Origin: Eledone cirrhosa
Taxonomy: Eukaryota
Direction of reading: 5' to 3'
DNA length: 64,000 nt
NCBI GenBank assembly: GCA_964016885.1
Contig: OZ024741.1
Span: 80,414,001-80,478,000, forward strand
Of the stretch, positions 42,634-64,000 are shown in pieces (the stretch's first letter is position 1; each line of letters begins with the position of its first letter). Below the pieces are notes generated by a model. That model did no database searches and was not told where the DNA came from. It saw nothing but the letters and a program-made list of their open reading frames with translations. The position numbers and the translations under genes were made by a program.

Positions 42634-43831
42634 ATAAGATCAGTTAGTTTCACTTGGGGAGAGTTGCTTCTGATAGGATTCTGTAAAGGTGTGTCTCAGG
42701 AATAAGTAGACGAAGAAGTGAAATGATTACACTCATTCTTTTTTTTATTTGTATGTGAACCTTATTTAGATCAGTCTTCATTGAGCAGCTCAGTGTTCCT
42801 TCCAGCTGTCATGATCACATTTTTTTCTTATTAAGGATAACTCTATCCAATGTCCTTTATTAAAGATGAAAGGGTTTAATTTGAGGGAGACTTGACTGCA
42901 GGATGAGTTGGCATGAGCTGTGAAAATATACTTAGATGGCTTATTTTAGCCACTTGAAATATGATTCTACCCATTATATCTTATGTGTGTACACATTTTA
43001 ATACAGATGCATACAATCATATGTTAGTACACATCCACATCTTCATCTATTAACATACATACACACAATATTTGGGTTATTTTTTCATGTTTGTGGAATG
43101 AAGGCATTATCTTATGTTATGCTAAAGTGCAACCACACATTACAAGTGTGATAATGTTTATATATATCTTTTTCAAAATAATATATATGTGTATATATAT
43201 GTATATATATATATATGTGTATATATATATATATATGTGTATATATATATACACATATATATATATATATATATATACACATATTATTTTGAAAAAGATA
43301 TATATAAACATTATCACACTTGTAATGTGTGGTTGCACTTTAGCATAACATAAGATAATGCCTTCATTCCACAAACATGAAAAAATAACCCAAATATTGT
43401 GTGTATGTATGTTAATAGATGAAGATGTGGATGTGTACTAACATATGATTGTATGCATCTGTATTAAAATGTGTACACACATAAGATATAATGGGTAGAA
43501 TCATATTTCAAGTGGCTAAAATAAGCCATCTAAGTATATTTTCACAGCTCATGCCAACTCATCCTGCAGTCAAGTCTCCCTCAAATTAAACCCTTTCATC
43601 TTTAATAAAGGACATTGGATAGAGTTATCCTTAATAAGAAAAAAATGTGATCATGACAGCTGGAAGGAACACTGAGCTGCTCAATGAAGACTGATCTAAA
43701 TAAGGTTCACATACAAATAAAAAAAAGAATGAGTGTAATCATTTCACTTCTTCGTCTACTTATTCCTGAGACACACCTTTACAGAATCCTATCAGAAGCA
43801 ACTCTCCCCAAGTGAAACTAACTGATCTTAT
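42634..43831. repeat. Apparently perfect inverted duplication (~550-bp arms) of local sequence around a TG/CA-TA spacer, centre ~43232
   Basis: Arms are reverse complements. The mirrored ORFs 43091..43348(+) and 43117..43374(-) confirm the symmetry. Confidence 0.95.
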
Positions 43832-44715
43832 ATATATATATATATATATGTATATATATATATATGTATATATATATATATGTATATATATATATATGTA
43901 TATATATATATATGTATATATATATATATATATATATGTATATATATATATATATATATATGTATATATATATATATATATATGTGTATATATATATATA
44001 TATGTATATATATATATATATATATATATGTGTATATATATATATATATGTGTGTATATATATATATATGTGTGTATATATATATATATATATATGTGTA
44101 TATATATATATATATGTGTATATATATATATATATATGTGTATATATATATATATATATGTGTATATATATATATATATATATATATGTGTATATATATA
44201 TATATATATGTGTATATATATATATATATATGTGTATATATATATATATATATGTGTATATATATATATATATGTGTATATATATATATATATGTGTATA
44301 TATATATATATATATATATGTGTATATATATATATATATACATATATACACATATATATATATATATACACACATATATATATATATATACACACATATA
44401 TATATATATATACACATATATATATATATATACACACATATATATATATATATACACACATATATATATATATATACACATATATATATATATATACACA
44501 TATATATATATATATATACACACATATATATATATACACATATATATATATATACACATATATATATATATATATACACATATATATATATATATACACA
44601 CATATATATATATATGTGTGTATATATATATGTGTATATATATATATGTGTATATATATATATATATATATGTGTATATGTGTATATATATATATATGTG
44701 TATATGTGTATATAT
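43832..44715. repeat. Imperfect TA array with polarity switches: (TA)nTG, then (TA)nCA, then (TA)nTG
   Basis: G-interrupted to ~44340, C-interrupted ~44341-44601, G-interrupted to 44715. Confidence 0.95.
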
Positions 44716-46267
44716 ATAAATTGAAACAAAATGAAAACGAAATTTCATTTCTCACTCTTAGTATGGCACTTACTTAAATGTAAGTATGCATGTATACGTA
44801 CATACATATATGTATACAGACGTACAGTAGCATGCACATATATATATATATATACATATATACATACATATGCATACAGGTACACATACATATATGCACG
44901 TATCAGTTTAGCGGCGCTAACGTCGCTTTGTTCGTTTGTAAACAAACTGAACAGCCTGAATTTATGCCATACGGTGTTAAGGCAACCACGTCACCTTTTT
45001 GTTCAACACTGACACAGGAACGATGTACTAGTTTCAAGCTTGTTAGCTATCATCAGCACCGTTTACCCATCTGCCAGATAGTTGAACGTTCGAAAGTATA
45101 TACTTTCCTTATGAAAATTAACGGCTGAGCAGCCTAATTTGCATATTGAGTGAGTTAAATCGGTCAGGCATACCGAAAACGATAAATTGAAACAAAATGA
45201 AAACGAAATTTCATTTCTCACTCTTAGTATGGCACTTACTTAAATGTAAGTATGCATGTATACGTACATACATATATGTATACAGACGTACAGTAGCATG
45301 CACATATATATATATATATACATATATACATACATATGCATACAGGTACACATACATATATGCACGTATCAGTTTAGCGGCGCTAACGTCGCTTTGTTCG
45401 TTTGTAAACAAACTGAACAGCCTGAATTTATGCCATACGGTGTTAAGGCAACCACGTCACCTTTTTGTTCAACACTGACACAGGAACGATGTACTAGTTT
45501 CAAGCTTGTTAGCTATCATCAGCACCGTTTACCCATCTGCCAGATAGTTGAACGTTCGAAAGTATATACTTTCCTTATGAAAATTAACGGCTGAGCAGCC
45601 TAATTTGCATATTGAGTGAGTTAAATCGGTCAGGCATACCGAAAACGATAAATTGAAACAAAATGAAAACGAAATTTCATTTCTCACTCTTAGTATGGCA
45701 CTTACTTAAATGTAAGTATGCATGTATACGTACATACATATATGTATACAGACGTACAGTAGCATGCACATATATATATATATATACATATATACATACA
45801 TATGCATACAGGTACACATACATATATGCACGTATCAGTTTAGCGGCGCTAACGTCGCTTTGTTCGTTTGTAAACAAACTGAACAGCCTGAATTTATGCC
45901 ATACGGTGTTAAGGCAACCACGTCACCTTTTTGTTCAACACTGACACAGGAACGATGTACTAGTTTCAAGCTTGTTAGCTATCATCAGCACCGTTTACCC
46001 ATCTGCCAGATAGTTGAACGTTCGAAAGTATATACTTTCCTTATGAAAATTAACGGCTGAGCAGCCTAATTTGCATATTGAGTGAGTTAAATCGGTCAGG
46101 CATACCGAAAACGATAAATTGAAACAAAATGAAAACGAAATTTCATTTCTCACTCTTAGTATGGCACTTACTTAAATGTAAGTATGCATGTATACGTACA
46201 TACATATATGTATACAGACGTACAGTAGCATGCACATATATATATATATATACATATATACATACAT
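44716..46267 (-). mobile_element. 466-bp hammerhead-containing tandem repeat (retrozyme-like), 3.3 units, ribozyme sense on minus strand
   Basis: Exact 466-bp periodicity (ORF track repeats at 44731/45197/45663). HHRs at 45019-45063, 45485-45529 and 45951-45995. Confidence 0.9.
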
Positions 46268-62366: not shown

Positions 62367-63099
62367 TGTATATATATATATATGTATATATATATATATG
62401 TATATATATATATATGTATATATATATATATGTATATATATATATGTATATATATATATATGTATATATATATATATGTATATATATGTATATATATATA
62501 TATGTATATATATATATATGTATATATATATATATGTATATATATATATATGTATATATATATATATGTATATATATATATATGTATATATATATATATG
62601 TATATATATATATATGTATATATATATATATGTATATATATATATATGTATATATATATATATGTATATATATATATATGTATATATATATATATGTATA
62701 TATATATATATGTATATATATATATATGTATATATATATATATGTATATATATATATGTATATATATATATATGTATATATGTATATATATATATATATA
62801 TGTATATATATGTATATATATATATATATATGTATATATATATATATATATATATGTATATATATGTATATATATATATATATATGTATATATATATATA
62901 TATATATGTATATATATGTATATATATATATATATGTATATATATATATGTATATATATGTATATATATATATATATGTATATATATGTATATGTATATA
63001 TATATATATATATGTATATATATATATATATATATATATGTATATATATATATGTATATATATGTATATATATATATGTATATATATATATGTATATAT
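62367..63099. repeat. (TA)nTG array
   Basis: Units such as tatatatatatg/tatatatatatatg, with no C interruptions seen. Confidence 0.95.
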
Positions 63100-64000
63100 A
63101 AACTCCATTTTATGTCCTAAATGCAAAGTATGGGTGCATAAAAGATGTAGTGGGATCACAGGTAAGCTAACTAAGAACATAGATTTTACATGTGGCCGGT
63201 GCTCTGGTGCAATAAGTAGCAGCAAGTGCCCACAAACTACTAGCTCTTTCAATTGCGCAGAGGGTTCTATAGAAATAGTGGACAGCTTCCGTTACCTGGG
63301 CGATAAAATCAGCAGTGGGGGAGGGTGCTCTGAAAGTACTGTAGCTAGAGTCAGAACTGGTTGGAAAAAGTTCAGAGAGCTTATACCACTATTAGCTGCT
63401 AAAGGGTTCTCACTAAAAATGAAAGGCAGGTTGTACGATGCCTGCATACGAACAGCAATGCTGCATGGCAGTGAGACCTGGGCATTGTGTGCAGAGGATA
63501 TACGCAGACTAGAGAGGAACGAAGCTTGCATGTCTCGCTGGATGTGTAACAGTAATATACGTGAACGGCAAAGCATAAACGAACTAAGGAAAAAATTAGA
63601 GATAAGAGGGATCAGATGTTGTTTACTCGAGAGAAGGCTACGTTGGTATGGACACGTGATGCGCATGAAAGTCGATAGCTGTATAACAAAGTGCAGGGCA
63701 ATAAAGATAGACGGTAGTCACGGAATAGGCAGACCTAGAAAAACCTGGGACGAGCTGATAAACTCCGACATCACACACTTACACCTCTCCAAGACAATGT
63801 CACTGGACCGAGACCTTTGGCGGTACTCAGTAACAGAGAAGACCCGCCTTACCTAAATATATAGTAAAACCTACTCCAGCCAGTAGGCATCTCTAACAAA
63901 ATACACCCCGTCCCACCACCCCCGCCCCCACCCCATCCACACCACCCCGTTCTATGTAAAGTTATGTTGGTGCCCGCGCCATCGAGGCCGAAACAAATGA
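63100..64000 (+). mobile_element. RTE LINE 3' portion in inverted orientation (continues beyond window)
   Basis: NSILCPKCK...TEKTRLT* plus 3' UTR. Reverse complement of ~59760-60637. Confidence 0.92.

Follow-up and report, generated by a model that had tools for sequence, protein, structure and literature searches.

Telomeric chains of the HeT-A/TART/TAHRE, Athena and Terminon kinds, as portrayed in PMC5537684, place 5'-truncated retroelements beside simple repeats. Other retroelements are seated in one type of microsatellite, as for the long interspersed nuclear elements (LINEs) Waldo, Mino, Kibi, Koshi and Dong, whose targets as set out in PMC3812793 are AC, ACAY, TC, TTC and TAA, with neither TA nor a CR1 family among those given there. 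Nearly all families of the Hydra clade of Penelope-like elements (PLEs) are described as inserting into (TA)n, with tandem and inverted inserts typical (Craig et al. 2021, PMC8557442). Here we analyse a locus of Eledone cirrhosa that recalls each of these systems. It lies in a stretch of 64,000 nucleotides (nt; GCA_964016885.1, contig OZ024741.1, positions 80,414,001 to 80,478,000), which we call the window, and continues into the sequence to its right, as a chain of TG-interrupted TA arrays alternating with a hammerhead retrozyme, a PLE and pieces of PLEs, two CR1-type LINE families (CR1a and CR1b) and RTE LINEs. A single TG-interrupted TA microsatellite probably expanded to many kilobases and was hit serially by several TA-seeking retroelement families, and the locus likely acts as a microsatellite landing pad for target-primed retroelements and not in a telomere-like manner.

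While the chain shares 5'-truncated retroelements beside simple repeats with the telomeric systems of PMC5537684, it differs from that portrayal in being non-terminal, in not running in one direction, in holding no telomeric repeat (no tandem TTAGGG occurs in the chain) and in its families, which carry endonuclease domains; the PLE has GIY-YIG-type motifs, unlike the endonuclease-less reverse transcriptase (RT) of Athena. From the microsatellite LINEs of PMC3812793 it differs in its TA target, in the involvement of two CR1-type families and in the occurrence of CR1a in either orientation. Copies of the PLE, the retrozyme and both CR1-type families lie in TA repeats at other places in the genome too. 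The modules and their polarised arrays are real in the assembly and belong to a class of locus that is common in this genome.

Insert orientation and array polarity

A preliminary description of the window had read the locus as a one-way chain of cDNA copies, formed by telomere-like extension of one DNA 3' end or by strongly oriented serial insertion into one TA hotspot. We surveyed orientation in the 20 kb around all 37 loci with one 80-nt array pattern in the first 129 Mb of the largest scaffold, and at two PLE-linked loci; the pattern has 6,799 exact matches genome-wide (3,367 forward, 3,432 reverse). Element 3' ends adjoining a clearly polarised array of at least 150 nt were scored, and short, mixed or array-less ends were set aside. 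With a 610-bp family left out, the RNA-sense strand in the 39 other clusters was C-rich, the polarity of the preliminary description, at 35 ends and G-rich at 30 (p = 0.62). Family searches gave 9:9 for CR1a, 10:2 for CR1b (this locus and one duplicate dropped) and 0:2 for the PLE, and survey and family searches pooled gave 54:43 (p = 0.31). Orientation within clusters was no more concordant, as 41 of 78 pairs agreed (permutation p = 0.28; 16 clusters with at least two scored ends). Mixed orientation around such arrays, which the preliminary description had itself named as speaking against telomere-like extension, is thus what the genome displays; serial insertion into a TA hotspot stands, but its supposed strong orientation does not.

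At the locus itself, four of the five one-armed inserts agree in orientation (p = 0.375), and the sense RTE copy is a separate insertion. The other five inserts, namely the retrozyme and four PLE or PLE-like pieces, are two-armed and strand-symmetric: they read antisense-then-sense from either strand and so say nothing on direction. The one-way cDNA chain is not upheld on these counts, and its apparent order likely reflects chance together with inserts that look alike from both strands. Moreover, in six of the ten inserts the right-hand end would have to be primed from DNA on the right side. Their anatomy suggests that the right flank already existed at insertion, so that a single growing end could not supply such inserts.

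Shared array polarity exceeds chance, whereas insert orientation does not. Of 105 clear spacers in other clusters, 91 had like polarity on both sides, and 52 more were mixed or unclear on one side, with 47 scored as mixed. Repeat units were also more alike across a spacer than in other-cluster or non-adjacent pairs: among 100 same-polarity spacers, nine of them from this locus, the longest run shared across the insert was 39 nt, compared with 31 nt for other-cluster pairs (p = 1e-10) and 34 nt for non-adjacent pairs within a cluster (p = 9e-5). Array motifs vary from one locus to another and change in local blocks. The variant GCATG is found 13 times to the left of the insert at 74146-75155 and once immediately to its right, but not in any of the other 10 arrays (coordinates above 64,000 continue the window numbering into fetched neighbouring sequence), and other rare variants are likewise confined to single local blocks. 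Because motifs continue across inserts and GCATG straddles the insert at 74146, the arrays would predate the inserts. Slippage and direct duplication preserve array polarity, and three direct duplications of whole spacers were found inside clusters.

The computed folding of polarised array segments, taken over both strands, was 20-80 kcal/mol weaker than that of mixed-polarity shuffles in seven of seven segments (12 shuffles each) and was also weaker than that of pure TA versions. Weaker folding would favour survival, if TA cruciforms break as described in PMC13645644, and such a filter could act on sequencing and assembly too. Assembly gaps occur in 9 of the 37 array loci (20 kb each) vs none of 40 evenly spaced samples of half that size (10 kb). 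TA-type arrays make up 5.1% of the 400 kb of evenly spaced samples, and 57% of this lies in arrays of at least 150 bp; those of at least 500 bp amount to about 1.5% of the evenly sampled DNA. At one further locus (L155-L157, C28:118.03 Mb), array polarity flips from G to C exactly across a scaffold gap, and arrays of mirror polarity may pose difficulties for sequencing or assembly.

Architecture of the locus

The chain lies 80.4 Mb into a 416-Mb scaffold of the 3.0-Gb assembly. Its position relative to the chromosome end, a check proposed in the preliminary description, is therefore interstitial, with unique DNA and genes on both sides. Unique DNA stops at 43180 and is followed by a short TA/TG microsatellite, an inverted copy of the flank and then the chain proper, made up of alternating arrays (12, together 19.3 kb) and inserts (10), with a scaffold gap of 200 N at 79391. 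Unique DNA is indeed absent, as had been described, over a stretch of 44.5 kb past 43180, to about 87,650, and not of about 20 kb. Much else in that description is borne out: the fold-back near 43232 has arms at 42637-43180 and 43285-43828 that are identical at 544 of 544 positions around a centre near 43233; the modules starting at 44716 (retrozyme), 57420 (CR1-type tail) and 59513 (RTE tail) are all present in the assembly; and the TG-interrupted arrays share one polarity, all being G-rich on the plus strand, with 11 of the 12 almost C-free and a C-rich inverted part in the first. The unit of unique DNA that is folded back has just two full-length places in the genome, and this is the sole case of its form, a fold-back of unique DNA around a short TA centre, among 40 loci. 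The features are as follows (G and C counts refer to the arrays).

42637-43180, plus strand: unique left flank, the fold-back template, with a 100% inverted match to 43285-43828
43181-43284, no strand: presumed seed (TA)n(TG) microsatellite, G-rich on the plus strand up to the fold-back centre near 43233
43285-43828, minus strand: inverted left-flank copy, rejoining the array via about 3 nt of TA-like microhomology
43829-44718, no strand: TA array 1 (G55, C33), with an internal inverted segment
44716-46267, minus strand: hammerhead retrozyme, antisense arm, 3.3 x 466 bp (TRF), core on the opposite arm's strand
46263-49774, plus strand: hammerhead retrozyme, sense arm, 7.5 x 466 bp, beginning at the predicted cleavage site
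49775-50041, no strand: TA array 2 (G39, C0), TGTG type
50042-56290, minus strand: Hydra-type PLE by its motifs, a full unit (50042-54211) and a 5'-truncated tandem copy (54212-56290)
56291-57419, no strand: TA array 3 (G143, C0)
57420-58574, minus strand: CR1-type LINE, family a, 5'-truncated, 99.8% identical to other copies, with an RVT_1 match
58575-59512, no strand: TA array 4 (G86, C1)
59513-62363, minus strand: RTE LINE, 5'-truncated, unusually rich in private indels
62364-63099, no strand: TA array 5 (G48, C0), period 16
63100-64254, plus strand: separate sense-oriented RTE insertion, 5'-truncated, with a (GAT)n tail that runs to 64254, just beyond the window
65795-70113, antisense, beyond the window: CR1-type LINE, family b, near-full-length, frameshifted
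74146-75155, two-armed, beyond the window: piece of the chain's main PLE
75694-75999, 76286-78100 and 81654-82030, two-armed, beyond the window: three further PLE-like pieces

To the right, the first coding exon of a PRUNE2 homolog on the plus strand, 86% identical to Octopus bimaculoides PRUNE2 over the large exon, lies about 32 kb away and starts at about 120 kb in window numbering (L014-L018). About 57 kb to the left is a bromodomain exon (L020:5459-5611, plus strand), with TRIM33/TIF1 as best single-domain matches. Selection against sense inserts within an intron was considered as a cause of the local bias and rejected, as the 111 of 194 candidate frames scanned show no exon on both sides.

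Element families and their TA targets

The retrozyme is built of 466-bp tandem units that are 100% alike, each with a predicted type I hammerhead core (CUGAUGA...GAAA) that lies on the plus strand in the second arm, and by these features it is of the non-LTR (long terminal repeat) retrozyme type. It resembles the metazoan non-LTR retrozymes, with their PLE partners, as presented in bioRxiv 10.64898/2026.07.22.740005 in its tandem core-bearing units and the absence of an open reading frame (ORF), and differs from them, as presented there, in being regularly two-armed and TA-anchored and in its roughly 10,000 identical cores (10,261 exact copies by pattern search). Among the first 100 of these matches, 15 of 16 two-orientation loci have the antisense-then-sense form; this is the usual, strand-symmetric form of the element, which had been taken as evidence of polarity and does not supply it. 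No Rfam hammerhead appeared among the 150 of 218 matches listed, which were microRNA-like matches on TA repeats only; the predicted fold has a z of -0.8. The outer ends of two-armed inserts of three families lie about 57-62 nt apart on the element: 312/250 in the retrozyme (44716/49774), 1167/1109 in the second PLE (L010:2286-4100) and 307/250 in the third (L010:7654-8030). Retrozyme RNA as a template of the array variants was rejected, the shared words being explained by single substitutions in TATG.

The PLE has a unit of 4170 bp with an ORF of 832 amino acids (51540-54038), in which YRDD at residue 367 precedes YVGST, a GIY-YIG-type motif, at residue 725. Since the Naiad endonuclease is an N-terminal GIY-YIG before the RT and the one here is C-terminal, the earlier label of Naiad at 50041 was right as to a PLE, which starts at 50042, and wrong as to its kind. 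To judge by its motifs, the element is Hydra-type and belongs to the C-terminal-endonuclease group: it carries the DKT, CxCX5C linker and flanking CxxC and CxH motifs that PMC8557442 gives as marks of the Hydra clade, and shares with that clade the order of RT and GIY-YIG, insertion into (TA)n and partial tandem and inverted forms. It departs from the clade, as characterised in PMC8557442, in its length (4.2 kb vs generally <3 kb), in RWR in place of RWK, in showing no match to one simple pattern for a canonical hammerhead and in sharing its array with LINEs. The ORF has no match in Pfam and has 312 homologs, with 31-46% identity among the 120 listed, almost all without a name. The genome holds 1050 candidates, some copies being 100% identical. 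TA lies directly at the 3' end in all of 30 loci except at internal tandem junctions, and most other copies are found in short arrays, of either polarity. At several insertion junctions (L010:146-170, L033, L045) the terminal ATATGAAAT-like unit is doubled or tripled, a mark of slippage as cDNA synthesis began.

CR1a and CR1b, which from their motifs we take to be CR1-type families with an APE endonuclease, are 38% identical to each other and have octamer-like 3' tails. Against a background of about 5%, 3' ends lie in TA repeats in all 30 best copies of 942 CR1a candidates and in all 18 CR1b matches, this locus included in both; at the survey loci this held for 6 of 7 CR1a and 11 of 11 CR1b ends. 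Arrays flank both sides in all seven CR1a copies (of the 30) with a 5' end within reach, and 24 of the 30 lie in long arrays vs an expected 57% of array bases, a modest preference only. We found no account of CR1 targeting of TA repeats in the open-access literature. One full-length CR1b copy (L097:2776-7115, minus strand) has an intact ORF2 of 1045 amino acids and an ORF1 with what are presumably two CCCH-like motifs, and is a candidate active TA-targeting LINE.

The non-coding element of about 610 bp that was left out of the orientation counts has 1893 candidates (for example L143:9077-9684, L125:8985-9640 and L161-L190, some head-to-tail), with a fixed 3' end and variable 5' truncation, and inserts into (TATG)n/TA repeats. 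Its sense strand always lies on the G-rich strand (16:0 in long arrays), opposite to the polarity of the preliminary description. The element is reminiscent of the bipartite non-autonomous RTEs treated in PMC5786205, and a comparison with Rfam gave nothing useful. As a seed of the arrays it was rejected: repeats lie on the 5' side too in 28 of 30 copies, and the chain here contains none. Targeting with free orientation could come from a self-complementary read-through (UA)n tail, and the fixed orientation of the 610-bp element from a tail matching one strand only.

The sense RTE copy (63100-64254) shares 93.5% identity with its antisense neighbour, from which an array of 736 bp separates it, and 99.0% with the copy at 2281-3434; on its right, a (GAT)n tail of its own abuts the next array. 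As a separate insertion, it contradicts the earlier statement that sense modules are only inverted partners of the preceding element. The window also holds a full-length RTE (2281-5800, minus strand), 99% identical to the sense copy, whose intact ORF includes APE, RT and a PHD finger. The antisense copy carries 11.8 private indels per kb vs at most 2.4 in 25 other compared copies; they are concentrated in the 1.6 kb nearest the tail and comprise homopolymer and 4-9 nt slippage-type events, with 10 of 14 one-base indels in homopolymers. Within 59513-61450, AT-rich sequence that looks unrelated and occurs nowhere else in the assembly stands in place of a G-rich tract. The antisense copy would owe these features to either read noise or error-prone copying. 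Contigs from three runs of the same sample give no exact cover of its two most altered stretches (one bin reached a depth of 11 in one run) and no branch at the fold-back exit; since contigs drop rare variants, neither was used as evidence. One RAD-seq run yielded four reads.

Explanations of the chain and their significance

In the favoured account, the array would have grown by DNA slippage or direct duplication, which copies polarity, in keeping with the common G polarity and the local motif blocks that are observed. Polarised arrays, predicted to fold less stably, would escape cruciform breakage and so persist at kilobase length. Each element would then have entered either strand by target-primed reverse transcription and so split the array; for two-armed inserts, both ends of the cut likely served as primers. 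Several points weigh against this account. The one-armed inserts of the locus mostly share an orientation, CR1b leans to the polarity of the preliminary description (15 C-rich vs 6 G-rich, p = 0.08), and flanking retroelement pieces lean to the minus strand (18 vs 9). The survey loci were chosen by one polarised pattern, and 101 of 168 survey spacers were less than 60% annotated with the first library. Arrays of opposite polarity are joined by 14 of the 105 clear spacers, and the arrays on either side of each of the two RTE copies show little continuity of motif (cosine 0.35 and 0.19). Ordinary insertion explains neither the indel-rich RTE copy nor the fold-back of unique DNA, and array expansion and the order of events are inferred from the present sequence.

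The indel-rich RTE copy and the fold-back would fit a process in which cruciforms formed by TA arrays are cut and retroelement RNA or adjacent DNA serves to patch either broken end, occasionally through a host polymerase prone to error and without element endonuclease. The perfect 544-bp fold-back with its short microhomology, the inverted segment inside array 1 and the clustering of RTE indels in the part that would be copied first all point that way. Human-cell TA repeats are described in PMC13645644 as breaking, with Pol theta repair leaving small templated duplications; long TA repeats with a fold-back and small duplications are common to both cases, although the material of that account is human cancer extrachromosomal DNA, for which it reports no retroelement capture. 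Such patching is nonetheless unlikely as the source of the chain: inserts begin at exact 3' tails, as in normal target-primed reverse transcription, the families carry endonuclease domains, the families differ in habit (the 610-bp element is strand-specific and CR1a is not), as would suit element-driven targeting, and read error may explain the RTE copy rich in indels. We likewise hold it doubtful that polarised kilobase TA arrays, about 3% of this genome, are more generally fragile sites whose two broken ends are healed with whatever template is available, be it retroelement RNA or DNA from close by, in some cases through a non-cognate RT prone to error, with CR1-type LINEs as niche specialists and the fold-back and indel-rich RTE copy as repair scars.

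Details of the chain (its order, array lengths, fold-back and noisy RTE copy) might instead be in part artefacts of an assembly in which long reads cover TA arrays thinly. The 200-N gap is preceded by degraded repeat with 27.9 irregular dinucleotides per kb vs 0-10 elsewhere, gaps are frequent at array loci, and the one-base RTE indels fall largely in homopolymers, with the most altered stretch of that copy unique in the assembly. Against this, tails join arrays exactly, patterns are specific to families across many scaffolds, the long periodicity is perfect, neighbouring copies are near-perfect (CR1a at 99.8%, sense RTE at 99.0%) and array polarity continues across the gap, so that this explanation is improbable as well. 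The least credible explanation, and a very improbable one, is that a template-jumping RT extended one DNA 3' end and added TA/TG arrays like telomerase. It would account for arrays that are all G-rich on one strand and for the four antisense one-armed inserts, and a telomerase-related PLE RT appears active in this genome, given the 100%-identical copies. However, the site is interstitial, the sense RTE and the five two-armed inserts need a right flank, orientation elsewhere is mixed, array motifs vary between loci and drift in local blocks, unlike the product of one RNA template, and other PLE copies lie mostly in short arrays of either polarity.

The telomere-like reading, striking if true, is thus removed by the genome survey, and the favoured account offers a simple explanation of why kilobase TA arrays are polarised. 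A genome-wide count is now at hand for TA targeting by CR1-type LINEs, and the intact CR1b ORF2 makes endonuclease-driven targeting vs RNA-tail pairing testable. Since a large share of assembly gaps falls in these arrays, they bear on the quality of cephalopod assemblies and on structural variation.

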